DNA of 64,000 nt, taken from positions 28,212,001-28,276,000 of the forward strand of contig CM052816.1 of assembly GCA_028534125.1 (NCBI GenBank), in the 5' to 3' direction. The notes under the pieces were generated by a model. It had not been told where the DNA came from. It did not search any database and saw only the letters and a program-made list of their open reading frames with translations. Shown one piece after another: positions 1-20,231 of the stretch. The stretch is from Lama glama. Its lineage: Eukaryota. Numbering within the stretch: position 1 is the stretch's first letter; each line of letters opens with the position of its first letter. Made by a program: the position numbers and the translations under genes.

Positions 1-3000
1 TTCCCTCTTCCCCAAACCCCCATCTCTGATAACAAGCCTGATCTCTTTTTCTATGAATTATTTGTTTGTTTATTTGTTTATTCTGAAGTATAACTGACCT
101 ACAAAACTAAGTTAATTCCTGGTACACAATATATTAATTTGATATTTCTACACAATACAAAATAAACACCGTAAGTCTAGTTATGACCTGTCACCATACA
201 AAGATATTACATAATTACTGACTGTATTCCCCATTCTGTACATTTCCTACCCATGACTCATTAGTTTAGTAACCAAAAGTTTGTACCTCTTAATCAGCTT
301 CCCCCTACACCTTGCCTCTCTGGCAACTACATGTTTATTGTATCTATGATTCTGTTTCTGTTTACTTGTGTTTATTCATTTGTTTCTGTGTTCTAGATTC
401 TACATATAAGTGAAATCATGTAGTCTGACTTATTTCCCTTAGCATAAAATGTCAGTCCATCCATGTTGCTGCAAATGGCAAGATTTCATTCTTTCACTGG
501 CCAAGTAATACTCCAGTGTGTGTGTGTGTGTGTGTGTGTGTACAGATAGATAGATATGTATGTCTTCTTTATGTCTGTCTGTTGATGGGTACCTGGGTTG
601 CTTCTATATTTTGGCTAATGTAAATAAATAATGATGGTATGAACACCAGGGTGTGTGTATCTTTTTGAACTCGAGTTTTTATTTTATTTGGACATATACA
701 CAGGAGTGGAGTAGGTGGATCATATGGTACTTTTATTTTTAGTTTTTTGAGGAACTGCCATATGGTTTTCTATATTGGTTACTTCAATTTATATTACCAT
801 CCACAGTGTATGAAGGTTAGCTCTTCTCCATATTCACTCCAACATTTGATGTTTTTGGTCTTTTTGATGATAGCCGTTTTGATAGGAGGGAAGTGAAATC
901 TCATTATGGTTTTGATTTGCATTTCTCTAATGATTACCAATACTGAGGATCTTTTCATGTTTCCATTGGCCATCTCTATGTCTTCTTTGGGAAAATGTCT
1001 ATTCAAGTCTTCTGCCCATTTTTAATCAGGTTGTTTGTGAATTTTTTTTTTGATATTGAATTGTATGAGCTGTTTATGTATTTTGAATATTAACTTATTA
1101 TTGGTCATATCATTTGCAAATAATTTTCATTCAGCAGATTGCCTTTTTTTGTCAATGGTTTCCCTTCCTATACAAAAGCTTTTAAATTTTTAGATTCAAT
1201 TTGTTTATTTTTGCCTTTCTTTCTTTTGCCTTAGGAGACATATTCAAAAAAAGATGCCTAAGGTTTATGTCAAAGAGTGTTCTGCAACATTCTCTGCTAG
1301 GAGTTTTACAGTTTCCAGTCTTATATTTAGAACTTTAATCCATTTTGAGTTTATTTTTGTATACGGAATGAGAAAGTGTTCTAATTTCATTCTTTCACAT
1401 TAGCTGTCCAGTTTTCCAAGCACCATTTATTGAAAAGATAAATGTGCCTTTTCTCCACTGTGTATTTTTGCCTCCTTTGTTGTACATTGATCGACCATAA
1501 ATATGTGGGTTTATTTCTGATCTCTCTATTCTGTTCCATTGATCTGTGGGTCTGTTTTTGTACCAATACCATGCTGCTTTGTTACTGTAGCTTTGTAGTA
1601 TAGCCTGAAGTCAAGGATACTGATACCTCTTGCCTTATGCTGTTTTCTTCAGATTGACTTGGCTATTCAGGATCTTCTGTGTTTCCATAAAAATTTTATA
1701 AATATTTGTTCTAGTTCTGTTAAAAATGCCATTGATGTTTTGATCCGGATTGCACTGAATCTCTAACTGGTCAAGGACAGCATTATGATTTTATTTTATC
1801 ACAATATTAATTCTTCCAATCCATGAACCTTGAGTATCCTTCCATATTTGCGTTGTCTTCAGTTTCTTTCATCAGTGTCTTACAGTTTTTGAAGTACAGG
1901 TCTTTCACCTCCTTAGACTTATTCCTAGGTGTTTTGTTCCTTATGATGTAATTGTAAATGAAATTGTTATCTTAATTTCTCTTGCTGATGTTGTATTGTT
2001 AGTATATAGAAACATGACAGCTTTCTATATATTAACTTTGTATACTGTAATTTTACTGAATTTATTGATGAGTTTTCTTTTTTTTTGGGTTGTGTACTGA
2101 GGAGTCTTTATATATAGTATATGTTACCTGCAAACACTGACACTTTTACTTCTCTTTTCTAATTTGGATTTCACTGATTTATTTTGCTAGTCTGATTCCT
2201 GTGGCTAGGATTTACAAAACTCTGTTGATTGAATAAAAGCATGGGCATCTTTGTCTTCCTCCTGATCTCAGAGGAAATGCTTTCAGCTTTTCATTTTTGA
2301 GTATGATATTAGCTATTGGTTTGTTGTATATGGTCTTTATTATATTGAGGTATATTCTCTCTATACTGACTTTGTTGAGGTTTTTATTGTAAATAGATGT
2401 TGAATTCTGTCAAAAACTTTTTGTGCAGTTATTGAGATGATATTAGTTTTATTCTTCAGTTTGTTAATGTGGTGTATCCCACGGATTGATTTGTGAATAT
2501 GGAACTATCCCTGCTTTCCCAATATAAATCCCACTCACTGATCATGGTGTATTACTCTTTTAATGTATATTTGACTTCAGCTTGCTCATATTTTGTTGAA
2601 GGTTTTGCATCTGTGTACATCAGTGATATTGGCCTGGTCCTTTCTTTTTGATATCTTTGTTTTTGTATCGGGATGTTGCTGGCCTAGTAGAATGAGTTAT
2701 GAAGCATTTCTTCTGCTGCATTCTTCTGGAAAAGTTTGAGGACTAACTTCACTAAATGTTTGGTAGAATTCACCTGTGAAGCCATATGATCCTAAACTTC
2801 TGATAATTGGGATTTTTTTTTCTTAATCACTAATTGAGCATCATTACTGGTATTTGTTCTGTTCATATTCCTGGTGAAGTCTTGGGATATTGTACATTTC
2901 TAGGAATTTGTCCATTTCTTCTAGATTGTCTATTTTATAGGCATGTAATTGTTCTTAATATACTGGCATTTAATTGTAATTTCTTATAATCCTCTGTACT

Positions 3001-3662
3001 TCTGTAGTGGCAGTTGTAATTTTTCCTTTTTCATTTCCTATTTTATTGATTTGCACCTTCTCTTTTCTTCTTGATAAGTTGGGCTAAAAGTTTAACAGTT
3101 TTGTTTTTCTTTTCAAAGAACCAGCTCTTAGTTCTATTGATCTTTCCTACTGCATTTTTAGTCTTCATTTCATTTATTTCTGCTCTGAATTTTATGATTT
3201 TTCCCTTCTACCAACTTTTTTCTTGTTTTCACTTTACATTTTTTAGTTCCTTTAAGTGTAAGGTTAAGTATTGAGATTTTTCTCATTTTTTTATGTGGGC
3301 TGCTATCACTATAAACTTCCCCTTTGAAAGTTTTTGATGCTTTCCAAAGATTTTGGATTACTGTGCTTTCATTTTCATTTATTGCCAAGTATTTTTTTAT
3401 TTACTATTTGATTTTTTCAGTGACCCATTTGTTGTTTAGTAGCATATTGTTTAACGTCTGCATATTTTGTGGGTTTTGCAGTTTTTTTCTTGTTGATTTC
3501 TAGTGTCATAGACTTGTGGTTGGGAAAGGTATTTGTTTTGATGTTAATCTTATCAAATTGATTGAGACTTGTTTTGTAGGCTGTCCTATTATCTATCCTG
3601 GAGAATATTCCATGTGCACTTGAAAATAATATGTATTCTGCTGCTTTTGGATGGAACGTTAT
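1..3662 (-). mobile_element. 5'-truncated, degraded LINE-1 (ORF2 from the endonuclease region to the C-terminus, plus 3' UTR)
   Basis: ORF2 peptides in the track ([43 protein letters not shown]) and an L1 3' UTR at about 1-560. Confidence 0.95.
516..552. repeat. (TG)n plus (GATA)n microsatellite
   Basis: Read directly from the sequence. Confidence 0.95.
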
Positions 3663-3814
3663 ACTCCTGTGATTCTTCCAAAGAGACTTAGTCAAATTCA
3701 AAAAACAGAAAAAGAATTTTTAGATGGAAGTGTTCACAATAAGAGTTCACTAATCAATCACAGAGTGTAAGTTTTTCCCCTAAAACAACAATTTTAGATT
3801 GCTAGTCTATTTAC

Positions 3815-5993
3815 CTCGTTCTTGCTTCCCATGACGAATGATGGGGCAGCTATACCTGGTGTTTTCTATTTCTAAAAACACCGATTCTTCATTGGCAGCT
3901 CATTTTGCTGAAAAATTGGAGTTTTGATTTTAGGAGACTGTTGTTTTCTCTAATTTCTTCTAGGGCTCTTAATCCTGATAAAGAATGTAAAAGCACTGGT
4001 TCAAACTTCCTGGTTTCTGTATTTGACTTGTTTTTGTCATCTCTTATATCTTAATAGGCTTCAATAATAACTTTTTTGAGCAACAGTTTTTGGGTTTTTT
4101 TTTTTTGTTGTTGTTGTTGTTTCTTAACTAAAAATGGCAACTACTTTCTTTCTTCAAAATGAAGAATGACTTTCCCACTGAAGGGTATCACCACTTTTTC
4201 TGTCATGAGACATGAAAGACTATTTGCAAAACCTTTCATCTTCATGTAATTTTTCCCCATTACTCTCACCACCAAGAATGATACTAGAACATTTCTTTTG
4301 CAGGGGGTCACTTAATGTTTCCACTTGGGGGTTAGCATGTATCTTCTAGGGTTCAGGGGGAACTACAAACTATTTTTCAGAAGGCTTTGACAAAGAATTT
4401 GGAATATCCACTACTTTGGGTCCATGTTCTAATCTTGGCTAAACTTTCTTTTGGATTATTCATTGGTTTCTTTGCCAATATTTTGTCTTCTTTCCCTTTT
4501 TGCTCACTGATAACAGTTACTTCATGCTGTATCTTACTGACATCATCACTTGAACACAAAATGCCTTTGGAATGATTATCTTTTGAAACATTCTTTAATG
4601 ATTTAACCTCAGCAATATTTTCTCTTGTATGTTTTGGACCTTTGACAGCAACTTTTAACATCCTTTTCTTCTTTTTTTATTGAAGTACAGTCAATTACAA
4701 TGTGTCAGTTTCTAGTGTAGAGCACACTGTCCCAGTCATGCATATACATAAATTGTTTTCCTATTCTTTTTCATTAAAGGTCATTACAAGGTACTGAATA
4801 TAGTTCCCTGTGCTATAGAGAAGAAATTTTTTATTAATATATTTTTATATATTGTGGCAGACATTTGTATATCTCAAATTAGCAAATTCACCCCTTCCCA
4901 CCCCTTGTCCTCGCTGACCATAAGGTTGTTTACTATGTCTGCGAGTCTGTTTCTGTTTTGTAGATGAATTCATAGTGTCCTTTTTTTTTCTCTTTTTTTT
5001 TTTAGATTCCACATATCATTGATATAATATGGTATTTTTCTTTCTCTTTTCTGACTTACTTCACTTAGAATGAAGATCTCTAGGTCCATCCACGTTGCTA
5101 CAAATGGCATTATTTTACTCTTTTTTATGGCTGAGTAGTATTCCATTGTATAAATACACTACAACTTCTTTAACAAGTCATCTGTCAGTAGACATTTAGG
5201 ATGCTTCCATGTCTTGGCTATTGTAAATAGTGCTGCTATGAACGCTGAGATGCATGTATCTTTTCAAATTAGAGTTCCCTCCAAATATATACCCAGGCAA
5301 ACCATTCTCTGACAGAAATCTTAGCAATGTTCTCCTAGGGCAGTCTATGCAGGCAATAGAAATAAGAGCAAAAACAAACAAATGGGACCTAATTAGAAGT
5401 TTCTGCACAGCAAAGGAAACCATAAGCAGAACAAAAATGACAATCTACAGAATAGGAGAAAATATTTGCAAATGATGCAACTGATAAAGGCTTAATTTCC
5501 AGAATATATACACAATACAAACAACTTAATAAGAAAAATAAATAAATAAATAACCCAATCCAAAAATGTGCAGAAGACTTAAACAAACAACTCTCCAATG
5601 AAGACATACAAATGGCCAATAGGTATATGAAAAAATGCTCAGTATCACTAATTATCAGAGAAATGCAAATCAAAACTACAATGAGGTATCATCTCACACC
5701 AGTCAGAATGCCACTATTAAAAAGCCACAAATGATAAATGCTGGAGAGGGTGTGGACAAAAGGGGATGCTTCTACACTGTTGGTGGGTATGTAATTTGGT
5801 GCAGCCATTATGGAAAATAGTAGAGATTCCTCAAAAGAATAAAAACAGACTTACCATATGATCCAGCAATCTCACTTCTGGGTATATATCCAGAGGGAAT
5901 ATATGTTTTATTTTTGACAGAATCCATTGTATCCTGGTGAAGACAAAGTAGAATTTTGGTTTTCCAATTCATAGATTTTTAGATAGATAATGC
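3815..5993 (-). pseudogene. Large exon (~0.95 kb without the insertion) split by an L1: HYLSKNL*IGKPKFYFVFTRIQWILSKIK / [22 protein letters not shown]...FEPVLLHSLSGLRALEEIRENNSLLKSKLQFFSKMSCQ*RIGVFRNRKHQV*LPHHSSWEART
   Basis: Acceptor ttttatcttgaag (exon starts 5993), donor GAG|gtaaat (exon ends 3815). After removing the L1 the frame plausibly joins track ORF 4377..4661. Frameshift near 4440, microsatellite expansion near 4095-4123, several stops. Confidence 0.7.
4663..5898 (-). mobile_element. 5'-inverted (twin-primed) LINE-1: 4663-5297 minus (ORF2 end, 3' UTR, poly-A), 5298-5898 plus (inverted upstream ORF2 segment)
   Basis: T-rich tail near 4663-4680 and a strand switch near 5297. Both segments meet at the same L1 position (ctgggtatatat..gagggaa). 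Confidence 0.9.
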
Positions 5994-6449
5994 CTTCAAG
6001 ATAAAATTCCACTCTTTTTATTTAAAGATGAACAAAGTAAATTACTTTCAGGGTCTAAGAGATGATTATTGCTAGAGTAGAAAGAGATTCCAAATCTCTT
6101 AATTTCCAATGCTTTTCCCACTGCATCTTGCTACTTATTAAATATTTATTTGTATTAAGACAAGTTATTCATGGAATTAATCATTTAACTAAAAAAAAGG
6201 AAAGTATTTCTTACTTTTTTGCTTTTCTTCTACTACAATTTCTTAATTTTTCTAAAATTTCTAATATGCCTAAAGTTTCCAGCCAAAACTCTCTACTTTC
6301 GTCTCCTTGCAAACACTTTTGAAAATTCTCATTTACTTCATTACTTCAGCTGTCGTCTGTCACCTCCCACGTTCATGCAAAGGAGCCTCAAATTTACATC
6401 TTCAGTACTCATAGCTCTAGTTCCTCTTTAAACTTTAAGTGAGCAGAGA

Positions 6450-7112
6450 TGTCAATGTGCAAAATAAAATATATAAACTCTCAAAGAAAATGTAAATCTG
6501 GACATTAGTATAAAAAACTTCATTAAGGGGAACTACTGCAGTAGAGAGAATGCCCGACCATTCAACTTACATGTTTCTTAGAAGTCAGATAGAAAGGGAT
6601 TTTTTTAAGGGAGGAATAATCAAGACTAGCAGGAACTAGGTGTAAGAAAATAGGGTGAGTAGGTGGCAAAATCAGACACTTGAGCAGGAAATGTTTTTCT
6701 TTGTAGTCCCAATTCTAGGGAGGGGTAAAAGGAAGACGTGTTTCATGCTTAGGTGCTTGTATAACCTCAAGGGCAAGTCACAGTTCAGAAGAAAGAAGAA
6801 ATGCCTAAGTAAATTCTGGTTAAGTCACATTAGTGAGCATTTTGTTCAGATGGGTCAGTGAGAACAAACAGTATACTTAATTGTTTATCATATAAAAAAT
6901 TTAGATTCTCTGAATAAATTTTAGATCTTTTAGAGGAATTTTAGAGAAGATTTAGAGCACTGGCATCTGGCATTGTCATAGGTGATGAAGGGGATCATCA
7001 CAAGAGGTATATCTAAGTCATATGGAGAAGGGTGTTTTCTGGAACACAAAAAGGTAGGGAATTCTTAATTATTACTATTTTCCAGGAGCACAGGGGTCAC
7101 ATAAAGTTCAAC
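6450..7112 (-). mobile_element. Solo LTR, ERV1 MER34-like
   Basis: Minus strand begins tgttgaactttatgtgacccctgtgctcctggaaaa and ends ...gaca; resembles MER34-type LTRs from memory. Confidence 0.6.
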
Positions 7113-8380
7113 ATTGCCAAAACAAATACAGACTTTTATTTTGCCTCACCTACTATTATTTGACCTCATTAAAATATTTCATCTTTCCAGCTTCTCCATT
7201 CTCATCAGTAATGTTATTAAATGCTCCACAACTCTGACCAGCACTCACTCAGATAATCTCTGAAGTGACTGCCATTGATCAACAAGCACTCCAAACTGGT
7301 GCATGTAAGGTACCATATATGCTTGGGATGAATTATTGGCATTTCCTCTCTCTCCACCCTCTTCTTATCAATCCCTGTTACTTCTATAAATAACACTTAA
7401 TCTTGGAAAAGTGGTATAAAATCTTCAGGAGAAGACTCAGTCCCATATACTTTCCTATAGTCTGATATCTCACTCAAGCATTTCATACTGTTTTGTAATT
7501 GTTTTTTTCTAGCCCAACGTTTTTACTTTCCTAAAACCCCTCTCACTGTGCCTTCTCAAACACTCTATTACCACCAACTCTCTATGCATCTTCAGCCTCT
7601 TCTCAGTGTGTCCCCTGTTCATCCCCTTGATGACACTGCTTCCCCATGGTCTCCCATGTAGTTGCTTTTTCTCTCCTACCCAAAGCCCCTTTAGCTTGAA
7701 CTTTCACCAGTTTCCCTGGTGACTCACAGGCTTTTAAAATACCATGCCCCACACATCTTCTCTATTTTCATGACTGTTTTGCCTTCCCTGGAATGTTGCA
7801 AATTTATAACTCTACAGACTCTCATCTGACAAGAGACTACCTGCTTCCTTCCCCACCCTATTGATGAGGGAGCATTTAAATTTAATCCATACTTTGTTAA
7901 TCTATTATGTCCACTACTTTAGGGGAGAAAATACCTACTTCTCATTCTAATGCTACAACTAGCTGATTCATAATCAGACTAGCACATGGCTTACTGGGAA
8001 TCTGTGTTTTCCTGTGAACTGGAGTTAGACAGCTAGGTGTTACTAATAAGTATCAGCCAGACCATATGCTGGATGTGTCGAATTCTCTCTCCTTTAAAGT
8101 GTAAATATCCCATACTGGGGTTCTTCCTACACACTGGTGACAGAGTGTGAGATGGTGCCCTGTTCCTTTAATTCAGAGTAAATCTCTTAACATAAAGCTT
8201 CTGTCCAAGAAAAGCATCCCAGTTATTCAAGTCGCTCTCTTATCCTCTTCCTACAGCAACAAGTTCAAACAGAAACATAAAGAACAAAAATTCATCAACA
8301 GTAACTCACCGGTGAGTTTGGGAACTTCACTTGGACCTCTTAATGGTTCCACACTTGTGTGTCCCTATTCCTCTCCCCTT

Positions 8381-8580
8381 CAGTGATTATTATTCTTGGT
8401 TGCACATTATAATACCTGGGGAGATGTAAAAATACCGATGGTCATGTCCCACCTTACCCCACTATCCATGCCTTCACCTCCACCAACATTTTTATTTAAT
8501 TGGTCTGGAACATGACCTGGACATTGGAATTTTAAAAGGCTTACCAGATGATTCTAGTGGGTGTTCAGGATGACTAGCAC
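8381..8580. mobile_element. MER5A-like hAT-Charlie MITE
   Basis: ggttgcacattataatacctgggga...ttaattggtctgg...ggaattttaaaaggcttaccagatgattcta. Confidence 0.75.
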
Positions 8581-8652
8581 CTCAAGAGTTTTTCTTCCAA
8601 CCTGCATCTAACCCCTCTTGCGAGATCAGATGTGGGTTCTTTCTCAGAGGTT

Positions 8653-8823
8653 AGGACCAGCTATGTAAATTGTGGCACACAGCGCAAAATGATAATACAG
8701 AGCCCCTTGTTCAAAAATTGTTAAGAATTTCAAGACTGTGGCAACAGAGTATTAAATCAAGTATGGTGCTCTTCTAAGCATGTATCCTTGTGCACAGGTA
8801 TCATGCCCAATAAGCTAGCCCTG
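8653..8823 (-). mobile_element. MER45A-like hAT-Tip100 MITE
   Basis: Minus strand cagggctagctt...cttgaaattcttaacaatttttgaacaagggg...atagctggtcct. Confidence 0.75.
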
Positions 8824-9675
8824 CCTGAAATCCAGTGGTAATAGTTAAGAGGTTTTCATCTTGTGGGTTTCTTTTTTCATCCATATTTTTCTGTTTCCCT
8901 ATTGAGTCTCTTTGATCCACTCACATATTCTTAAGATTACATTATTCTGCTCCCACACCCTCTCCCTGCTTTGGTGGGTAAAGGTGGCACAAGGAGCAAC
9001 TTGAGTCATGGTAGAATTTTCTCTCTATTTCTGTGGCCATCCCTTTTTGTAGTGGCACTGTCCTCTTCCTTATTTGGTTATTGCTAGGAAATTTTAGTGA
9101 TTATTTTTTAAAAGTATAGCTTTTCCACAACACTTTTACTCAGAAGATATTTTGCAATTTTGAAATTTTGATTTTATCTGATTTAATGTAGCCAGTTATA
9201 TTTAAGCAATGAAATCATACATTTTCAAATGAAAATTAACCGGGACAAAGAGAATGAGAAAATGATCCTAAAGCCATTCTTGTACAAGCAATGGGTATTC
9301 TTAAAACAAATGTCCCATCTTGGGCTGAAGAAAAATGAAGCATAATGTAACTAGTAGATACTTAACACATACATATAATTGTGCATGACTCTCTGGACTA
9401 GCTTTCTTCCTGCCACTCCTGCCCATTTCAATTATAGCTCCTTCTCCCTCCAGCACTTTCAACAACAAGGGACCATAGAAGATTCACGTCTGCAAAGAGA
9501 TTTAAGGATTATAGAAACACCGTCCATAATAATCATCACATCCTTCGAGATGAAAGTTTTTTTGATTCTTGGGCCAGGATTGCAACTGAATGTCAGGACC
9601 TAGCATTCCCTCTCCTTCAGAAAGATGGAGCTGTCAGCACCTCTGACAGGACCCTGCATCTAATACTCAGCTGAC

Positions 9676-9883
9676 CTTGTGGCTTGCAGTCGATTTACAA
9701 TATACACTGGGGAAGGAGCCAACATCACTAAGACGTAGTGCTGTGTCAAATAAAGTGGGAGAAATGCTTCTCCAAATCTCAGGAAGACGTTAATCCTTGC
9801 TAGACTGGAGCTGAAGTGTATATGACAAGCAGATGTAAAATCTCCACTGGGAATTCAGATGCTAAAGGCTCAACAAGAACACA
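9676..9883 (-). pseudogene. 208-nt exon, phase 1->2: CSC*AFSI*IPSGDFTSACHIHFSSSLARINVFLRFGEAFLPLYLTQHYVLVMLAPSPVYIVNRLQAT
   Basis: Strong acceptor ttattttcctttttcag, donor AAG|gtcagc, two TGA stops. Confidence 0.7.
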
Positions 9884-10793
9884 CTGAAAAAGGAAAATAA
9901 AGGCCCACTAACGTAAGATATGCTGTAGTGAACTAACAGGTTAATGTGCTTTTGTGGATCTAGGGCAATCCCCTTGCTGATACGATTTGCTTAAATTCTG
10001 CTTTCCTCTTTTTAAGCATGTTCTCTGAATTCTTCAATGTTAAGCTCAAGTATAATGCCTAAATAAAGTTCTCCCCAATGACATCCAACACTACTCTTCC
10101 CTTTTCTCAATTTTTCTCCCTATTCTTGATCCTACAATTTAATATATATGTAAACATATACTTATCACTGTATTCTATTCTATTGATAAAACACTCATTT
10201 TGTATGTTAGAAAATCAATACAAAATGTATATGAATGGCTTAATATACATACATTTTGTCACACCAGCTAGAATACCTAATTCCAAGAGCAGAACCACTA
10301 TATAAACCCTATTTAATCATTTTGTCCCTAATTATGCTGAATACAATGCTGTGAACATATCACCCAACATTCAGTAAAACTGGGTATTGTTGGATACATT
10401 GAAAGCAGACTAATTTATCAATTCTGAATGAAGAATTATTTTAGGTAAGTATAATCCTTGTGAATTTGGAATAAACTTAGTAAAGCTAACATTTTTAAAC
10501 CGGATTTGAAGGTTCAACTATAAAAAGGGTGGAAAGTAGAGGAAAAGAACGAGTAAGAAATTAGAAACAGAAAAGCGTGGCACTGAGGTAAATGAAAACA
10601 TCTTCATCTTATATATCAATACTGTGTGATCCAAATCTCAGAGGCTATTTTTTCTACTACAGTGGTAGACATATGTTTTAACGTCTGTCCAAACATAGTT
10701 CCACAGAACAAAGTTTTTTGTAAAAAATGAATGCAGATCTTGGGGTAGGAATTTAATATGAACCAACAAACTGTACAGTAAAAATAACTTTAC

Positions 10794-10873
10794 CAAATAC
10801 CATGAATCCCTCTGCGGTGAAAGTGTATTCCCCAGGATAAAAGTCAAAACCAGGTGATAATCCACTTCTGTTC
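10794..10873 (-). pseudogene. 80-nt exon, phase 2->1, open: NRSGLSPGFDFYPGEYTFTAEGFMVF
   Basis: Weak acceptor gctaaaattag, donor TTG|gtaaag. Phase is compatible on both sides. Confidence 0.65.
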
Positions 10874-12986
10874 CTAATTTTAGCACAATGACAAATTTAG
10901 TCATCTTAGCTCTAGCTTTTATCAATTTTGGACAAAAAAAAAAACACCATGTATAAATTCTACATTTTTTTCTATAATAATTTCTGTATTTTTTTGAATC
11001 AGTTCTGCCACTCAGAGTTTAAAAGAGAAAATGAATCTTCCCAGTTAACTTATATAGTTTATCCAAGCTATATAAGTCTTCTTTTCCTTAATTTATTCCG
11101 AGGGCTCTGGCTTCCCATTAGCCCCAGAAGCAAGAGTACATTAACTATTACTTCTCCTTGTGTCATTCTCATCTTTTCTGTACCTCTAACTTTAATTCTC
11201 AAGCACAGCCCAACAAAACCAGTTCTCCTCCTTCATCTATCCTACATTCAAGAAAAAGTCTTACTATTACTTGCTCTGCTTTATTCAACAACGATGGTTT
11301 ATTTATAATTCAGGTTAACCTCTGGAATGTTATCCTGATTAATTCCTTCAGTTTTTATCAATCTTGGTGGGTTTTCATAGCAGTATTGTGTTTTAGCTGA
11401 CCCAATACTTCTATAAGGCAGACACGGACTACTAACAACAAAGGAGCCAGAGCTATGCAAGGAATGGGAGAGTAATAAATGAAGGACATGGCATTGGCAA
11501 TTAAACAAAATCAGAATCTGTGGCTGTACAATTGAATCAAAGTAGGTCAAGGATTCTGGCATATAAACCAAAGGAAATCACAGATCCTCTTAGCTACTGA
11601 CCTACTTGCGGTACACAGTCTTATAGATGACTACCTATGACTAAACTCAGAATACTTCTATATTCTCAAATTTAGTATCCCTAGTGTCTTAAACGAAGCA
11701 AAACATAGTAAATCCTAAGTACGGCTATGATCCTTTCATTCACTCCTGTAGCTACTATAAATTCTTTGGTTTGTTTTGTTTGAATGATTTTCTATTACCT
11801 GACTCATCTGTTATTTTATTATTATATTTAAATAGATTCTTGGGAGCTGTGAATGTATTTCAAGAACACAATATACATTTATATACTTCAGAAACTGTAA
11901 ATGAAAACTGACTATCTAGTCTATGCCTAGAAAGCAAAAAAAGAAAAGAAAAACTAAAATGCTTAATCAGTTCATTGATCATTTTGGCTTTACAACAATA
12001 AAAAATAATTGTCAATAATATCTTCCACTCAATGAAATGAACATTTTCAACAAATTGACTGATTACTTTGGTAGTGTGGTGGGAAACTGAATTTAAAATT
12101 GTCTTAAAATGATATCAGAGAAAAATCATTTCTGAATTTAATTCCTTTAAAACATGATGTTAAAAAAAGAAATAACATGTTATCAGGGATTTATTAGGAA
12201 ATGGAGTGCATTGACAATTTTAACAAATGCAAGAAAAGCATCCTTAACAATGTCTTTTTATGAGAAAGTTAACAAGGTATTTAAAAAGCACAGAAAACAA
12301 CAAAAATATAAATGGGAATAATCAGTATTCTTGTAATTCATAAACTTCAAGGTGTATAGATCAAAGTATTTTACACACAAATATAAAATCAGAATAAAGA
12401 ATAAAGTAAGGAATTAATTTTGAACATTCCCAGTGGGAAAAAATATAATTACTTGGCTTCTGAATTTTCATAATCACTTCTTTAGGCTAAAATATGAAAT
12501 GGATGTAAGTGAAACAATTTCTTAGGTAGTGATAAAGTTAACTCTGGATATTAGAAAAACTCATGAAAACATTATTAAATGTATTCAAAATACCTTTTAG
12601 AATAATATAAATTAATAAAGCAAGACATTCTAAAATTTAATACTTAGTCTACAACTATCTTAAATTAAAAAGATATTCTTTTTAAAAATGTCAACTAAAA
12701 ATACCAGTATAATGCAAATTTAAAGACATTTACCAAAAATTAATTTTTATTAGGATTCTAATCACTTTAGGTACTAAATTGTAGCCAGTTGGATTCCTGA
12801 CCTTTTAAACTGAGTTCATAGTATAAATCTTAAGCTAAAAAGACTTAAACTCAGAATACATGTATGTGATGCACACCATTTTGTGAATCAACAAGAACTT
12901 TTACTTAAGGAAAAAAAATGACTTCAATAACTCATTCCAAAGAGATTGCTTCATTACAGCAATAGAAAGTGACTTTCAGAAAATAC

Positions 12987-13087
12987 TTGCTGCATCTGTT
13001 TTGATTTAAAATGTTCCTCTGACATTTACTTGTTTTCTCCACTGAGTTTTCCTTAAGGCTACCTATATAATAATGTGTTCCCTTATA
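12987..13087 (-). pseudogene. 101-nt exon, phase 0->2, open: YKGTHYYIGSLKENSVEKTSKCQRNILNQNRCS
   Basis: Acceptor ttttttttcccctcctctggtaaaccag, donor CAA|gtattt. Confidence 0.65.
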
Positions 13088-13414
13088 CTGGTTTACCAGA
13101 GGAGGGGAAAAAAAAAAAGGTACGAATTCACAATGTTTTATGACAAAAGAGCCAAGACTCTGAAACACTACCCCAGGGAGACATAAGCCTTTTTGTTTTT
13201 GTGGTACAATGGAAGTATGTGCTGTTTTCCTTCATACAGAGCAATGAACCCACAGTCCTTACTTTCTTTCTTTAATATATTTCAACTGATTTCCAAAAAA
13301 CCTTCTACCAGTTAATGAAACAAACAAAATAGCTCCACATTCGTCCTAAATTCATCATTCCATTCTCTTTTTGTTGGGATTGCCTGTTATTTAATTTAGA
13401 ATGCTACTTTAAAA

Positions 13415-13992
13415 ATACGTACAGCAAAGCAGCTTTTACTCCACAATTGGCACATAAATATGGTAAAAAGGTAAAAGCAACCCAAGTGTCCACTGATGGA
13501 CGAATGAACAAACAAAATGTTGTGTATACATACTATGGAATATTAAGCCAAAAAGGGGTTGCTCTCTCATGCCCTCTAAGACAGCCCACACTCTGTCTAT
13601 GGAGCATGTATCTCTCTGAATAAATCTACTTTTACTCAAAACAAAAGTCATAAAATGGAAGGAGGTTTGGACAAACACTACACTATGAACTTTTCAGATA
13701 TTTATATCAAGTAATATAAGCCACTTATAAGAAGAATTTCTATGAAGTACCTAGATTAGTCAAATTCAGCAGCAAAAAGTAGCATGGTTGTCAGGAGCTG
13801 GAAGGAGGGGAAATGAGGAGTTACTGTTTAATGGGTAGTTTCACTTCTGCAAGATGAAAAGATTCTGTGGATGCACAGTGGTGATGGCAGCATGACAGTG
13901 TTAATGTACTTAATGCTGGACTGTACACTCAACAATGGTTAAGGTGGAAAATTTTATGTGATGTGTATTTCAACACAATGTTTTTAAAAAAG
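13415..13992 (+). mobile_element. Old LINE-1 3' end (L1MB-like)
   Basis: aagcaacccaagtgtccactgatggacgaatg...gtacttaatgc...aattttatgtgatgtgtattt. Confidence 0.85.
13555..13646 (+). mobile_element. Retroposed LTR 3' fragment with AATAAA and a short A tail, nested in the L1
   Basis: Non-L1 insert ending gaataaatctacttttactc-aaaacaaa, flanked by aagccaaaaa / aagtcataaaa. Confidence 0.55.
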
Positions 13993-14096
13993 TTAAGGGC
14001 TCTGAAAATAAATGAATATGGTGAACTTCATGAGTACTGTAGTTGGATTTAAGATCAATCTTCGGAGTCAAAGATAGTTGTGTTTGAACCTTTTAC

Positions 14097-14336
14097 CATG
14101 TAATGACTTGGCCTTGCTGGTTTCCAATGGGAAGGAAATACACATATATTCATTATTGTGTTGTCTTGACACATGAATGAGAAAAATTCAGCCATTTCTA
14201 TTGCAGCATAAATTTTTTCAAGGCAAATTGTAATGTGACCTATTTGGTGATGATGAGACTGTATCTGCTTTACAGAGACTGTTTTGCTTTGATTCAAACT
14301 GAATCAATCGTTTCCATCCAAAATGAACAACTATGG
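14097..14336 (-). pseudogene. 240-nt exon, phase 0->0: P*LFILDGND*FSLNQSKTVSVKQIQSHHHQIGHITICLEKIYAAIEMAEFFSFMCQDNTIMNICVFPSHWKPARPSHYM
   Basis: Acceptor tttctgtgctgtag (an alternative in-frame AG lies 6 nt downstream), donor ATG|gtaaaa. Same frame as track ORF 14055..14297. Confidence 0.7.
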
Positions 14337-14562
14337 CTACAGCACAGAAACTGTATTTGAATGGTTTGGACTTTATTTATTCTATCAATGAACACTAAAC
14401 AGAGCAATTAGGTAAGAAATATGTCCTTAAGTCCTGATGCCAAAAAGAGGGAGTCACATAATTCCTGAACTAAACTAGTGAAATCAATGCTAGATTTGCT
14501 CAGGGAAACTTAGGTTTTATAGCTATACATATTTAACTATGTAGTTTAAAAAAAAACTTTGT

Positions 14563-15885
14563 TACTGAATGGGAGAAGTTATTTTAAAATGATGTATCTG
14601 ATAAGGGGTTAGTATCCAAAATATACGAAGAACTTGTATGTTAACATCAAAAAAACAAACAACCCAGTTAAAAAAAAGCAGAGGACCTGAAAAGAGATTC
14701 CTCCGAAGAAGATATACAGATGGCCAATGGGCAAATGAAAAAACATTAACATCAAGAAGAATTAACATCATTAATTAACAAGGAAACGTAAATCAAAAAC
14801 ACAAGGCATCACCTCACATATGCCAGAGTGTCTACTATTACAAAGTCTACAAATAACAAGTGTTGATGAGGATATGGAGAAAAGGAAACACTCATGCACT
14901 GTTGGTGGAAAATATAAACCACCATGGAGGACACTATGGAGATTCTTCACAAAATTAAAAATAGAACTATGATATGATCTAGCACTTCCACTACTGGGTA
15001 CTTACCTGAAGAAAGTAAAAACACTAATTAGAAAAGATACATGTACCCCTATGTTTATTACAACACTTTTTACAATACCCAAGACACAAAAGCAACCAAA
15101 CTGCTCATCAAGAAATGGATGGATAAAGACAATATATTATACATACATACATACAACACATATATTATATATATACATACACATACACACACAAGGGAAT
15201 ATACTCAGCCATAAAGAAGAATGCAATATTGCCGTTTACAACAACATGGACTGACCTAGAGTGTATTATGTCAAAAGAAATTAGTCAGACACAGAAAGAT
15301 GAATACTGTATGATTTCACTTATATGTGGAATATTGAAAAAAAAAGTGAAGAAACATAATAAAACAGAAACAGAGTTATAGATACAGAGAACAGGTGGTT
15401 GCCTGAAGGGGGAGGAAAGAAACAGGTAAGACACAATAAGTGTTACAAACTTCCAGTTTCAAAATAAATGAGTCACAGGTATGAAATGTGCAGTGTGGGG
15501 AAATAGTAACTATGCAATATCTTTGTATAGTGACCAATGGTAACTAGACTTATCTTGGTGATCATTTTGAAACATATGGAAATGTTGTATCACCATGTTG
15601 TATAACAGGAACTAACTTAGTGTTGTGGGTCAAATCTACTTTGAAAACAAGTAAACGCATAGAACAGAGATCAGATTTGTGGCTACGAGGGGCACAGAGG
15701 TTGGGAGAGGGAAAATTGGATGAAAGCGGTCAAAAGGTACAACCTTCCAGTTATAAGATAAATAAGTACCAGAGATGTGTATGTACAATATGATAAATAT
15801 AATGAACACTGTTTTATATTACACATGAAAGTTGTTAAGAGAGTAAATCCTGAGTGCTATCACAAGGAAAAAACCTTTTTTTATT
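14563..15885 (+). mobile_element. LINE-1 3' fragment (ORF2 end plus long 3' UTR)
   Basis: ORF2 C-terminal motifs (WEK, KDTC.PMF). The 3' UTR resembles that of the element at 1-3662. Confidence 0.92.
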
Positions 15886-16345
15886 TCCTTAAAATACAAC
15901 AAATTTTCTCTTCATGATGCCATGAAATAGAATAAATCCCCTCTTTAGGAGATGGTTTGATAGGTTTCAGAGACTTCCAAAGTTTATATAATGACATTGT
16001 CACGTTAAATATCACACATTTTATCTTTTAATCAAGAGTTTATCCATTTAACATTTCCTATTAATGACATGAAATTGTGGGCTTTGAATTATCCGCACAG
16101 TCTCAGAGATATTTCTCTTTATCAAACTTTCCTCTTGACAAAATTCCTGCCTTCCTGTATGTCTTTAGTGACTTATATGCGGAATGAACGGCACTGTTCT
16201 TAACCAGATCAGTGTTCATGTCTGTTAGTGAGCACCAAGGAAAGCACTGCTTCAATAATGCATTCTAGACCTACTCCACTCATCTAAGAAGACTGAAAAT
16301 ACATTCTAAATCTAGAGGGTAACAATACCATTTTTTCTTCTCTAG

Positions 16346-16682
16346 CAGAGTTGGGACTAGGATGACACAATGATTCATCTGGCTTGGCTGCAAATTTAAG
16401 GGTATGTCGAGACATTTGGCCATCAAGATAAATAATGTTTAAATTGATACTTTAAAAAATTAAACTAATGTAAAAATCCATGGGAAACAAACTATCAAGA
16501 TTTTCAACCTAGAGAGGATGAGTAACAGTGCGCTGGAGAGCCATTATTAATCCCTGAACCAAAGGGAAAATTAGTAACATCATTCCTGTTTTGAATTAAT
16601 TTGGATATTTTGTGTCCCTTTAAATTTTGCATCCAGAGGCAGCTCTGTCTCTCACTTCAGCCTCACTTCAGTGTCACCCCTG
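16346..16682 (+). mobile_element. MER96B-like hAT MITE
   Basis: aatttaaggg...atcaagataaataat...aaaatccatg...agtaacagtgc...taaattttgc...ccctg, with partial internal palindromy. Confidence 0.7.
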
Positions 16683-17283
16683 TTTTTGCCAGTTAACTAA
16701 AAGTTCATTGAATGGTAAGTAAGTTGAAAAGTCGCTTTGGAAGTAGCTGACTTTCCAGGAGTTGGAGAACATTGGACAGTTTGCCAACAGTATCACATGT
16801 AGCTGGTATCGATACTACCAGTGTAAGAGAGGACATCCCCTCCCTCTGATGTTCCTCTCTTTCCCATGTCCCTTCTTTCTCTTTATATTCCCTTGACATT
16901 ATTTTGCTCAAAACACGATGCACAAACCTGGGCTTGCCCCTTATATTCAGAGATAAATAAAGGCCTGACCTCCACTCTTAGACCTGGGAGCTCAGTCCTA
17001 TGTTACTAGGTTATATTTTCAAAACTGGATAATTGGCCCAAGGGACACAAATAGTTTATTATTTAAAAAGACCTAATTTCTTTCCTCCTTTAGCTAACGA
17101 GCAGCAAAAGAATTTGTGGATATTCAGTGAAATGTTATCACTCACTGCATCAAGCAGCATTTCCCAGGCCCTCTGGGACAGGGCTTAGCCAATGTATAGG
17201 ATATTATATGCCAGCTTTACCATGAATGAATGTAAAGACAAAGGACTTGTAGTGATTTCTTTTTTAAAGAGTCTATGAGGCAA

Positions 17284-18199
17284 TGATGACCCGCAGGTTG
17301 GCCAGAACAGCCTTAACGTTCCTCTTAATTTGACTCAACTTTAGACAGGTTTTTTTTTTTTTCCTGAGTAGAGTCCCTGACCTCCCTTTTCTTAGAGCAT
17401 TAACTTTGTAACACTTGCAATTGTAAATTCTTCTTCTATCCCTCTAAGGTGTAAATCTCCTCTCAGTCTCTTGCCATATTTACAACTCAGAAATATTTTT
17501 CTCAGGGACTTGGGAGCTATCTCTGAAATGTAATCATGAAGGAAGAAAGTGCCTGCTATGGAATCAATTGTTTCCACCCCAAATTTATATGTTGAAACTA
17601 ACCATGCACATGACCGTATTAAATATAAGACCTTTAAGGTTATTAAGGTTAAACAGGATTATACTCATGAAGGTTTATACAATATAACTTGTATCCTTTG
17701 AAAGAAAAAAATAAATAAGAGATTTCAAGTCTCCCCGCCCTCACCATCCCCACCCTTTGTGAGGACACAGCTGGAAGGCGGTCATATGCAAACCAGGATA
17801 AGCACCCTCTCTATAATCCACGCTGCAGACACCTTGATCTTGGACTCCCCAGCATCCGGAAATGTGAAAAAATAAATTTCTGTTTTTTTAAGGAACCCAG
17901 CCTGTGGTATTTTGTTATGGCAGCCAGAGCAGACTTAGACAGTGCCCCTATCTCCCAGTCTCTGTAGAAAAATAGGAGCCTAACTTGGAGAAGTGTCAAT
18001 CAGCAAGCCCAGATGACCAAATCCTACTGACCAGCCTCCCTCCTAACTTTTTCCACTAGCTCACTTTAGTGCTTAAAAATTCTCCTGCCTTTTGTTTAAG
18101 CCTAGTTGAAGTCACTCTCTCTCTCCCTTATTGTGACAGTGTTAGATAAAGTCTTCTTTGCCTGTTTAATTCAGTCCAGTGCAATTTTTTTCTTTGACA
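17284..18199 (+). mobile_element. Solo ERV1 (MER4-group) LTR interrupted by a MaLR LTR
   Basis: cctgacctcccttttcttagagcat...gaaatgtaatcat resumes after the insertion as ccctatctcccagtctctgt; ends tctttgaca. Confidence 0.75.
17554..17941 (+). mobile_element. Complete MLT1A/MST-like MaLR solo LTR
   Basis: tgctatgg...aataaatttctgtt...ttagaca, with a perfect 5-bp TSD GTGCC (17549-17553 / 17942-17946). Confidence 0.9.
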
Positions 18200-19036
18200 A
18201 AGTTACTCACTGATGATCTGTTTATTCCCTGCAGTCTTTTTGCCTTTTTTTTTTTACCAAAAGCATGAGTATTTTAAATATATGTGAAATTTTGTTAATA
18301 TTGAGCCAATACACTATTTTTGTCTGTAATTCTCTGCAGTATTTCTATGAAGAGAATTCTCTTCCTAAGAGCAACATTGATTTCTGATAAGTTTGTTGAG
18401 TTAATCTCATGTAGACACTTCTCTCTCTCTCTTTTTCCTTTTTTTTTTCTTTAATATTCAGGCTGCTTTGTGCTACATGATGATGAGAGGCTAACAGATT
18501 CACTTAAGCATTCAGTGAAACAGAAAGTTTTCTGTTTTCTAGAAAAATATGTTTAAATAAAAGAGTGGTCATTTAAAAAAAAAAAGCTTGCTATAAATTG
18601 AAAAAAGACTCAGTTTTTCCCTAACTCTCCCTGGTTTGGAAATGAAAGTCCAGGTTCCCAAGAAGCTTCAGTCTCAGACAAGCTGGTTTAATAGATCTGT
18701 CTTCCTATTCTGGTTTCTCTAGGATTAGCTATCCACCAGGTCATAAAAAACACAGCCATTGCAAATGATCAACAGGTTCTTTATGGGGCTGATGAACTGC
18801 AGTAGGTAAGGATAGTAGTGGAGGGAGAGGGGAAAATAATTAAGCAGAAAGAGGAAGAAAGAAGAATAACAATAAAAATAGAACACTTTCTCAAGCCTAC
18901 TACCACATGAGGAAAACTACGATTCTTAACATACTTATTTACAACTATCAAATAACTGTACCCAGCTATTGTTCATGTTTTTATACATGTATAAGAATCA
19001 CATTTAAATTTATTTTCAGGAAATGTAAAGTCAGAC

Positions 19037-19109
19037 CAGTGTTCTGTGAGGGATAATGTATTTTCAAACAAAGATAAAGGCTTCAAAGCAAAAGCGACTC
19101 AGCAGTTCA
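19037..19109 (-). pseudogene. 73-nt exon, phase 2->0: ELLSRFCFEAFIFV*KYIIPHRTL
   Basis: Acceptor tttcatttttcttttgtgcaaag, weak donor CTG|gtctga, one TGA. Confidence 0.55.
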
Positions 19110-19730
19110 CTTTGCACAAAAGAAAAATGAAAGATAAGTTTAACAGCGGAACCGATCACTGAACAATACTGCGAAAGTGAGAACTGAGTTATTGCTTTAG
19201 TGAGAACCCCTAACATTTTTAACTTCCAAATGCATAATAATGACATTTCAGGAAAATTACCATACTTAGACACAGATTTTAAAGAGAGAAGTTATTCCTT
19301 GAGCCTAGCTCTCCAGCTATCATGATAAAAATTTCCTGCCCATGGCAGCATTCAGTAAGGTCAACCTTTCTACAGTAGCAACTTGACATACTCAAGGACA
19401 CAGACATGCGATAGTAAATCTTGAAATTCCTTGGTTGGTGTGGTAGTAAAAGTATGTTTTCAATTTATATAAGCTATTTTCTTTTATAAATAAAAAGAAA
19501 GATATAAATAAAAGCACATTTTTACTTATATATCAAAGAGTTCTCCCCTTTATAATTCTATTCAATTCATTCTGTCCATTGAGGGAAATCTTTTCAGATG
19601 TACAAACTGAAAAGTGGTTAATATAATTTATTTCTGTGCATATTACTGCTATGTATTTGTTGATTCACCTGTGTACTATCTTACGTAGAGTTTACTTGGC
19701 TTTAGAATATGCATACTTTTCGAACCTTAC

Positions 19731-19821
19731 ATTTCCTTCAAATTATCGATAACCACTGACCACAGTCTCACTTTCACGTGCTCTCCTTCAACTGACAATT
19801 TTATAAAAGCAATAGATAATA
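19731..19821 (-). pseudogene. 91-nt exon, phase 1->2, open: LSIAFIKLSVEGEHVKVRLWSVVIDNLKE
   Basis: Acceptor aattttttatag, donor AAT|gtaagg. The only stop-free frame is the phase-compatible one. Confidence 0.7.
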
Positions 19822-19951
19822 CTATAAAAAATTAACTATACAGAAGTTCTTTCCCCTAGTTATGACTCATCATATCCCAATGTCCAGCTGCCGATTCAGC
19901 TTGGTTTTTATCTAGTTTATAGTCCTCCTACTCCGTGTTCATAAGAAATAC

Positions 19952-20108
19952 CTATAAGGACTGCTGAGCATACAGATGTGTTCGCCCAGTCCCTGGAAAT
20001 TTTTATTTGATAAAACCCAGGTAATCCTGTTCAGTCTCAGCAGAGCCATCTTAATTAAACAGTTTTTGATAGAATTGACCTGGGTAACTTTACAAATGAC
20101 ATTTTCCC
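19952..20108 (-). pseudogene. 157-nt exon; frame ambiguous (three stops in phase 0, or one frameshift giving ...KMALLRL-TGLPGFYQIKISRDWANTSVCSAVLI)
   Basis: Acceptor tcttttacttctgattttttag, donor TAG|gtattt. Confidence 0.6.
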
Positions 20109-20192
20109 CTAAAAAATCAGAAGTAAAAGAAAATTTTCCCTGTGTGGAAACAACCAGATGGTACTAATACACGAAAATTACACCAAACAAAC

Positions 20193-20231
20193 CACCAGCT
20201 CCTGGGGATCATTTGGGTGTTGGTCCTTGTG
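20193..20231 (-). pseudogene. Tentative 39-nt exon (HKDQHPNDPQELV in phase 0)
   Basis: Acceptor tttttttttaccctccgtgcccag, donor GTG|gtttgt, 84-nt intron to the next exon. Confidence 0.4.

Follow-up and report, generated by a model that had tools for sequence, protein, structure and literature searches.

Whether a ~16-kb interval of the Lama glama genome preserves a multi-exon gene that was lost in this lineage was examined in a window of 64,000 nt, the whole stretch of DNA analyzed (GCA_028534125.1, CM052816.1 28,212,001-28,276,000, forward strand). The interval under study (window positions 3815-20231, minus strand) had been annotated initially as a hidden fossil gene. The sole genuine fossil in this interval is very probably a processed (retrotransposed) pseudogene of SRFBP1, the gene for serum response factor-binding protein 1, a member of the BUD22 family. 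The locus represents neither a gene loss nor a multi-exon unitary pseudogene; it is an ordinary broken retrocopy, one more processed pseudogene of an already known gene.

An open reading frame (ORF) of 99 amino acids at 4380-4676 on the minus strand matched the SRFBP1 proteins of two placental mammals at 64-66% amino acid identity over residues 110-192 (horse, E = 1.8e-20, 66%; rhinoceros, E = 3.3e-20, 64%), and these were the two matches among 109 candidates in the protein search. Comparison by tblastn gave three colinear pieces over residues 110-428, in three frames and with stops present. Aligned to the spliced parental mRNA (positions 57-1128; window 4673->3662), the block contained 778 matches and 208 mismatches (78.9% identity; JC distance, 0.248), with the parental stop codon aligning to window ~3754-3756. 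The claim of a dead protein-coding sequence on the minus strand was therefore correct for the block 4673->3662, which derives from SRFBP1 and not from an uncharacterized gene, as had been proposed. The features of the block and of the elements around it were as follows.

3662..4673, minus strand: in-window part of the SRFBP1 processed pseudogene (parental codons ~110-428 and ~92 nt of 3'UTR)
3915..4651, minus strand: three parental exon-exon junctions (4651, 3956, and 3915), each seamless
1..3659, sense on the minus strand: 5'-truncated L1 with ORF2 from ~residue 183, running off the window start
4664..5297, minus strand: 3' part of a younger L1, with the ORF2 C terminus, 3'UTR, and a short A tail at ~4668-4680
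5295..5899, plus strand: inverted 5' segment of the younger L1 (twin-priming-type 5' inversion)

Introns were absent at 3/3 covered junctions, of which the one at 4651 rests on ~20 nt of the upstream exon, and the parental introns at those junctions measure about 0.75, 1.2, and 3.1 kb. What had been read as part of a multi-exon gene is a single intron-less block spanning three parental exon junctions. Compared with functional SRFBP1, the copy carried 9 premature stops in the 291 codons compared and 14 frameshifting indels (14/18 indels), and codons 1 to ~109 were absent from it. Divergence between copy and parent was similar at synonymous and nonsynonymous sites (dS, 0.281; dN, 0.228; dN/dS, 0.81). 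Horse SRFBP1 scored 49.6 bits on Pfam BUD22 (cut-off, 37), and no Pfam family, BUD22 (PF09073) included, was found at E ≤ 0.1 for three read-through pieces of the copy, among them the C-terminal one. With its frame broken and no BUD22 score, the copy is, judged from its sequence, not a functional SRFBP1/BUD22 member.

The parental gene was located by a search of the same genome, in which 13 of 13 candidates were scored and 9 matches were obtained, corresponding to six parental exons and three pieces of the window copy.

C1:27,587,050-27,627,009, minus strand: six stop-free parental SRFBP1 exons, 74-91% identical to the horse protein

One further exon of the parent, a small one, brought the total to seven. 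All seven parental coding exons located were open and their translation ran to the stop codon, with the first coding exon not found; the parental gene is apparently intact. It lies about 0.59 Mb from the retrocopy on the same contig and strand, with the copy upstream of the parent, and the presence of open parental exons at this distance contradicts the proposal of a unitary pseudogene or lineage-specific loss. The alternative offered in the initial annotation, a dead duplicate, held for the last ~0.95-kb "exon," which is the SRFBP1 retrocopy, and failed for the upstream segments.

The retrocopy is interrupted by two L1 elements. The read-through translation of the L1 at 1..3659, which is inserted in the pseudogene 3'UTR, corresponded to human LINE-1 ORF2p residues 183-1018 (window ~3659-1179; E = 1.1e-85). 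Past this L1, 3'UTR homology resumed at window -281/-342 to -427 (82.6% over 86 nt) and ended ~34 nt beyond the parental AATAAA, followed by an A-rich tract present in the copy alone (15/20 A); this tail lies outside the window and is short and decayed. The copy yielded no match to the ~350 nt of parental 3'UTR that separate these two homologous blocks. On the 5' side, the L1 at 4664..5297 adjoins the first recognizable sequence of the pseudogene. Its positions 4973-5158 (minus) matched ORF2p residues 1226-1265 (E = 1.3e-8), and positions 5546-5731 (plus) in the inverted segment matched residues 1066-1126 (E = 2e-21). Many genomic copies of the 4664..5297 part were found at 77-88% identity (best, about 85-87%) among the 39 scored of 46,634 first-look candidates, and other genomic copies matched both younger-L1 segments adjacently on opposite strands. 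The L1 at 4664-5899 abuts or replaces the 5' boundary of the retrocopy, which is hidden, and target-site duplications were not demonstrated because this L1 occupies the 5' end.

The initial annotation had assembled its gene from AG...GT-bounded segments of 157, 91, 73, 240, 101, 80, and 208 nt and a terminal piece of ~0.95 kb, all of which were found on the minus strand, and the in-phase chaining of the segments holds as claimed. The four peptide stretches quoted with it mapped to eight colinear minus-strand blocks.

19819-19733, 19108-19037, 14243-14097, and 13087-13055, minus strand: first four peptide blocks
10851-10795, 9884-9843, 5995-5906, and 4667-4650, minus strand: remaining four peptide blocks
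19887-19731, minus strand: 157-nt segment with 2 stops, apparently a chance segment (second 157-nt candidate at 20108-19952)
19821-19731, minus strand: 91-nt segment, apparently a chance segment
19109-19037, minus strand: 73-nt segment with 1 stop, apparently a chance segment
14336-14097, minus strand: 240-nt segment with 2 in-frame stops, apparently a chance segment
13087-12987, minus strand: 101-nt segment, apparently a chance segment
10873-10794, minus strand: 80-nt segment, apparently a chance segment
9883-9676, minus strand: 208-nt segment with 2 in-frame stops, apparently a chance segment
6011-5906 and 4667-3815, minus strand: ~0.95-kb piece (959 nt), joined over the L1 insertion

Because the donor at 19731 is common to the 157-nt and 91-nt segments, they cannot follow one another as exons and represent alternatives; the second 157-nt candidate (20108-19952), when combined with the 91-nt segment, was either not open or out of phase. 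GTRAG donors were present at 1 of the 7 donor sites in the chain. The "one continuous protein" of ~600 amino acids proved to be a chain of 605 codons (~1.8 kb) broken by 26 stops. Stops numbered 7 in the ~286 codons of the six upstream segments, and the 959-nt piece showed no frame preference, since its three frames held 18, 19, and 17 stops (background stop frequency, 6.0-6.5% of codons). The remark that most stops lie one C>T change from Arg or Gln codons is uninformative because every stop codon satisfies it (CAA to TAA, CAG to TAG, and CGA to TGA). Within the last exon, the first 99 codons were read in the true frame, and the reading left the true, frameshifted frame after residue 192; the 3' "donor" at 3815 sits within SRFBP1 coding homology.

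The best stop-free in-phase AG..GT chain was determined for 16.4-kb tiles on both strands and for 30 dinucleotide shuffles. With any AG/GT sites allowed, the best chain was 8263 nt (minus) and 7929 nt (plus) in the studied interval, 7292-8003 nt in the six other tile-strands, and 7244 ± 296 nt (range, 6518-7883) in the shuffles. Every one of the 8 real tile-strands and 30 shuffles thus gave a stop-free chain of 6.5-8.3 kb, and those of the controls were four times longer than the 1.8-kb chain of the initial annotation. When strict sites were required (pyrimidine tract and YAG acceptor, GTRAG donor), the chain in the interval was 366 nt, compared to 163 ± 119 nt (maximum, 503) in shuffles. The exon chain does not exceed chance. 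Open AG..GT frames on the minus strand of the interval were more numerous (3022) than in shuffles (1949 ± 188) or in other real tile-strands (1915-2404), and a faint nonrandom component could still be present among them.

Homologues of the upstream segments (six or seven, 5.9-20.2 kb) were found in none of the databases searched. The nine exon translations contained no Pfam family at E ≤ 1, and the 208-nt segment had no homologue among 23 candidates. Searches of the llama genome itself returned only the query for the 208-nt segment (5/5 candidates scored) and for the 99-amino-acid ORF around the 101-nt segment (9/9 candidates scored), and the 240-nt segment (14336-14097) was single copy. Three matches to the ORF of the 240-nt segment among 1.84 billion representatives were rejected as artefacts (tandem-repeat proteins, 5 stretches each). 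SRFBP1 residues 1-109 gave no tblastn match, and the upstream segments do not encode the N terminus of the parent. Positions 5906-6011 (minus) were also considered as part of the SRFBP1 fossil and rejected, as comparison of parental exons X2-X5 with 5900-6600 (minus) fell within the null (4-16/224 and 65-85/718 null windows scored equally high). RNA-labeled runs contained 16-24% of sampled words of 10794-20231, an observation not counted as evidence. The upstream "exons" at 5.9-20.2 kb appear to be ordinary AT-rich noncoding DNA.

Expressed retrocopies can recruit upstream exons, as is well established, and the segments offer usable AG/GT sites; nevertheless, it is very improbable that a promoter farther 5' once drove the SRFBP1 retrocopy, that its transcripts took in some of these segments as exons by splicing, and that the whole unit then died. 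The proposed acceptor at 6011 lies in sequence without detectable SRFBP1 homology, the upstream frames contain stops and lack homologues, the chance null accounts for the upstream segments, and the dN/dS, stops, and frameshifts of the copy give no sign of a functional period. A single 16-kb gene of 8 to 9 exons that died in place, as a unitary pseudogene or by lineage-specific loss of an uncharacterized vertebrate gene, is extremely unlikely. Its segments are AG/GT bounded with phases that chain, its upstream part lies in DNA found by the searches to be single copy, and the minus strand is somewhat richer in open AG..GT frames than shuffles, but these points are opposed by the longer stop-free chains in every control, the stops in the joined chain, the scarcity of GTRAG donors, upstream segments without homologues or the N-terminal 109 residues, and an apparently functional SRFBP1 elsewhere in the genome; the model is judged already refuted for its last exon, which is SRFBP1 derived and intron-less. 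A DNA-level (segmental or local) partial duplication of SRFBP1 has next to no probability despite the ~0.59-Mb distance, the shared orientation, and the undemonstrated target-site duplications, as it is opposed strongly by three seamless junctions in place of kilobase-scale parental introns and also by homology that stops near the polyadenylation signal and gives way to an A-rich tract, and by blastn, in which the only match to introns or flanks of the SRFBP1 locus was a repeat-like one at 62%.

The processed pseudogene of SRFBP1 resembles other mammalian processed pseudogenes, which arise when L1 reverse transcriptase copies mRNA, in its multi-exon parent and loss of introns at all three covered junctions, in what may be an end at the parental polyadenylation region with a short, decayed A-rich tract, and in its stops, frameshifts, dN/dS near 1, and later L1 insertions. 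A spliced, polyadenylated SRFBP1 mRNA would have been reverse transcribed, presumably by the L1 machinery, and the cDNA integrated, in minus-strand orientation, at a site ~0.59 Mb upstream of the parent, after which the copy probably decayed at a near-neutral rate. Later, an ~4-kb 5'-truncated L1 would have inserted into its 3'UTR and, also later, the younger 5'-inverted L1 at its present 5' end; codons 1 to ~109 may be missing by 5' truncation or may have been lost. Unitary pseudogenes are in-place gene losses, such as GULO in primates, that keep their exon-intron structure and leave no functional copy. The llama locus shares with them a dead coding sequence with stops and differs in having no introns and a parent that is still present.

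The main value of this result is as a correction, since the hidden 600-amino-acid gene lost in the lineage was wrong, and it advises caution in readings made from the letters alone, because AT-rich mammalian DNA always permits phase-compatible AG...GT chains. Unlike typical processed pseudogenes, the copy shows neither target-site duplications nor its 5' end here, and it is unusually close to its parent, on the same strand. No other SRFBP1 retrocopy was detected in 2.35 Gb, and uniform insertion would place a retrocopy no more than about 0.6 Mb from its parent and in the same orientation with a probability of ~5e-4. This proximity is mildly interesting and would matter only if systematic genome-wide. 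That it is not coincidental, with reverse-transcribed mRNA inserting preferentially near the transcribing locus, seems doubtful from this single case. Interchromosomal colocalization of retrocopies with their parents is reported in a study that excluded same-chromosome pairs (PMC10733166), and near-parent insertion here would mirror that colocalization within one chromosome.

The last piece of the proposed exon chain, which the initial annotation had read as an exon of ~0.95 kb in a multi-exon fossil gene on the minus strand (window 3815 to 20231, ~600 amino acids), was found to comprise 6011 to 5906 joined to 4667 to 3815 (959 nt), bridging an inserted repeat. Past the repeat, the piece begins with a 99-amino-acid open reading frame (ORF) at 4380 to 4676 (minus strand). 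Compared to proteins of similar length, this ORF had no match; compared to longer ones, it was similar to serum response factor-binding protein 1 (SRFBP1) from horse (E = 1.8e-20, 66% identity) and rhinoceros (E = 3.3e-20, 64% identity), with 84% of the query covered. A tblastn search of the window with horse SRFBP1 returned three pieces, colinear and each in a different frame, with internal stops:

4676-4428, minus strand, horse SRFBP1 residues 110 to 192
4435-3881, minus strand, horse SRFBP1 residues 190 to 379
4110-3757, minus strand, horse SRFBP1 residues 304 to 428

In the rest of the window, the best match had an E value of 1.2, and residues 1 to 109 had no convincing counterpart. This resemblance to SRFBP1, together with the L1 content, marks the window as placental-mammal DNA.

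Searching the source genome (2.35 Gb, >1 million contigs) with horse SRFBP1 produced nine matches, with all 13 of 13 candidates scored. Six were stop-free exons on the minus strand of the contig that holds the window at 28,212,001-28,276,000 (C1 of the llama assembly, G000; exons at 27,587,050-27,627,009), 74 to 91% identical to horse, and the other three were broken pieces inside the window. Reading of the parental splice sites added a seventh, small coding exon to the six. The parental exons had an open translation as far as the stop; no candidate for the first coding exon was found. These exons were joined by script, and the spliced mRNA was aligned to the window. Positions 57 to 1128 of the parental mRNA aligned to window positions 4673 down to 3662; the 778 matched and 208 mismatched positions correspond to 78.9% identity and a Jukes-Cantor distance of 0.248. 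Exon-exon junctions fell at window positions 4651, 3956, and 3915, where the parent has introns of ~0.75, 1.2, and 3.1 kb, and all three were seamless in the retrocopy. Within the coding part of the retrocopy, 14 of 18 indels were frameshifting, and premature stops occupied 9 of 291 comparable codons. Divergence from the parent (dS, 0.281; dN, 0.228; dN/dS, 0.81) reflected decay essentially without constraint.

On these alignments, SRFBP1 gave rise to the fossil, a processed pseudogene that is intron-less, in near-neutral decay, and hit by two L1 insertions; its parent, ~0.59 Mb away, is apparently intact. A multi-exon gene is not what the real block represents, as it is SRFBP1 derived and intron-less across three junctions, and the lineage-specific gene loss that had been proposed is contradicted by the presence of the open-exon parent at that distance. 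No description of an SRFBP1 pseudogene was found in titles and abstracts of the literature. At its start, the small penultimate coding exon (window 3915 to 3956) carries three additional codons in the retrocopy and in the SRFBP1 proteins of horse and rhinoceros. In the parent (G000:C1:27590313-27590413), those 9 nt sit just upstream of the sole available AG, and the older position has no AG; the parental acceptor may since have moved 9 nt downstream, which would preserve the frame.

On the 3' side, homology to the parent extended ~92 nt beyond the stop and was then cut at ~3660 by a same-orientation, 5'-truncated L1, whose read-through from 3677 downwards matched human LINE-1 ORF2p residues 183 to 1018 (PDB sequence search, E = 1.1e-85). 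In the 9 kb to the left of the window (negative coordinates), parental 3' untranslated region (3'UTR) homology returned at -342 to -427 (82.6% over 86 nt) and was extendable to -281. The copy yielded no match to the ~350 nt that separate the two homology blocks in the parental 3'UTR. Homology stopped ~34 nt past AATAAA in the parent, and at that point the copy ran on into an A-rich stretch that is absent from the parent and would fit a decayed poly(A) tail. A run of 500 N at about -6378 marks an assembly gap 6.4 kb to the left of the window.

At its 5' end, the homologous stretch abuts the short A tail of a second, younger L1, made up of two segments that were likewise identified by the PDB sequence search:

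4664-5297, minus strand, 3' part of the younger L1 (ORF2p residues 1226 to 1265)
5295-5899, plus strand, inverted segment of the younger L1 (ORF2p residues 1066 to 1126)

Other genomic copies (mostly 77 to 88% identical) matched both segments adjacently and on opposite strands, a pattern that suggests a 5' inversion across 4664 to 5899, as expected of twin priming. Continuation of the last exon upstream of this L1 (6011 to 5906) was not borne out, with the comparison of parental exons 2 to 5 to 5900-6600 (minus strand) falling within the null. When the absent 5' portion was sought upstream of the L1, the score was 12.5 versus a null mean of 12.9 (n = 156) in the first test; null windows scored as high in 4, 5, and 16 of 224 cases in the second test and in 65 to 85 of 718 in the third. 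A match drawn by eye between 5995-5906 and parental exons 4 and 5 was discarded because the scores in these tests were within the null. The retrocopy was either 5' truncated or lost its 5' part. The younger L1 is ~85% identical to its relatives, and a Jukes-Cantor distance of 0.25 separates the retrocopy from its parent, which is under constraint; from this comparison, we infer that the L1 insertions were probably later, separate events and not part of one chimeric retrotransposition. A clock-style guess from the same two values would give the retrocopy about double the age of the younger L1.

No SRFBP1 retrocopy other than this one (3662 to 4673) was detected in the 2.35-Gb genome, and it lies on the strand of its parent, ~0.59 Mb upstream. 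Under a uniform model, the probability of a same-strand insertion within ~0.6 Mb of the parent was roughly 5e-4. Non-random interchromosomal co-localization of retrocopies with their parents was described in a 2023 study from which same-chromosome pairs were excluded (PMC10733166). Proximity-biased insertion near the parent is a candidate reading that one case cannot decide.

The features described for the rest of the chain were present in the sequence. The four peptide stretches quoted in the initial annotation are encoded by the minus strand, split into eight blocks that run colinearly from 19819 to 4650; AG...GT-bounded segments of every claimed length (157, 91, 73, 240, 101, 80, and 208 nt) were located, and their phases chained as stated:

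19887-19731, minus strand, AG...GT-bounded segment of 157 nt (second candidate of this length, 20108-19952)
19821-19731, minus strand, AG...GT-bounded segment of 91 nt
19109-19037, minus strand, AG...GT-bounded segment of 73 nt
14336-14097, minus strand, AG...GT-bounded segment of 240 nt
13087-12987, minus strand, AG...GT-bounded segment of 101 nt
10873-10794, minus strand, AG...GT-bounded segment of 80 nt
9883-9676, minus strand, AG...GT-bounded segment of 208 nt

The 157-nt and 91-nt segments had been placed as consecutive exons; because one donor serves both, they are alternatives. One of the seven donors in the chain was GTRAG. The joined chain of 605 codons contained 26 in-frame stops: 7 fell within the six upstream segments (~286 codons) and 19 within the last piece. 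The background stop rate on the minus strand was 6.0 to 6.5% per codon. With 18, 19, and 17 stops in its three frames, the last piece had no frame preference. The observation that a single C>T change separates most of the stops from Arg or Gln codons was true and had no discriminating power, because C>T at the first base of CAA, CAG, and CGA yields TAA, TAG, and TGA, respectively.

The longest stop-free, phase-compatible AG...GT chain (segments of 60 to 300 nt, introns of ≥70 nt) was computed by dynamic programming. When any AG/GT sites were allowed, the best chain reached 8,263 nt on the minus strand of 3815-20231 and 7,929 nt on its plus strand, 7,292 to 8,003 nt in six other tile-strands of the window, and 7,244 ± 296 nt (range, 6,518 to 7,883) in 30 dinucleotide shuffles. 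Any such DNA (window G+C content, 33 to 40%) offers stop-free chains of 6.5 to 8.3 kb, and the proposed 1.8-kb, 26-stop chain therefore falls far short of that. With strict sites (pyrimidine tract and YAG acceptor, GTRAG donor), 8 exon-frames were open on the minus strand of the same interval and the best chain was 366 nt, compared to 3.5 ± 2.4 open exon-frames and a chain of 163 ± 119 nt (maximum, 503) in shuffles. One result was contrary: open AG...GT frames on this strand numbered 3,022, versus 1,949 ± 188 in shuffles and 1,915 to 2,404 in the other real tile-strands. The excess was patchy (1-kb bins 7-8, 10-11, 13-14, and 16-17 kb) and was attributed to, rather than proved to result from, compositional heterogeneity and combinatorial counting. 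The upstream "exons" are best explained by chance.

No Pfam family was matched by the nine exon translations (E ≤ 1), and among 76 window ORFs of ≥75 amino acids, two sub-threshold matches, both outside the proposed exons, were not meaningful. Clear L1 read-through translations gave no family either, which makes Pfam uninformative for this region. Three HMMER hits among 1.84 billion representatives (E = 2e-6 to 4e-5) were obtained for the ORF of the 240-nt exon. Inspection of the sequences led to their rejection as homologues, because they were three different tandem-repeat proteins, each aligned over five weak stretches, and thus score-summing artefacts. The open part of the 208-nt exon had no homologue among 23 candidate proteins. 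In the llama's own genome, the 240-nt exon (DNA search), the open part of the 208-nt exon, and a 99-amino-acid ORF around the 101-nt exon (protein searches) matched only themselves.

Of the 31-mers sampled from 10794-20231, 16 to 24% occurred in four RNA-seq runs of one study ("reproductive system metagenome"). These shares, which may reflect transcription, pre-mRNA, or DNA carry-over, do not bear on transcription or splice junctions either way. In DNA runs, 81 to 89% of sampled words were present.

A 221-kb local library placed no repeat beneath the upstream "exons," nor was any repeat found under a proposed exon in own-genome searches of 5901-14560 and 15800-20231 (40 of 4,669 and 40 of 2,716 candidates scored, respectively); this counts neither for nor against their being exons. 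Among the same scored candidates, old interspersed repeats with 66 to 86% identity to many genomic copies were seen at 13460-13556, 13736-14002, 17298-17555, and 17832-18201. The 3' fragment of an older L1 (14563-15394, plus strand), 66 to 77% identical to other copies, lies between the 240-nt "exon" and the segments further upstream.
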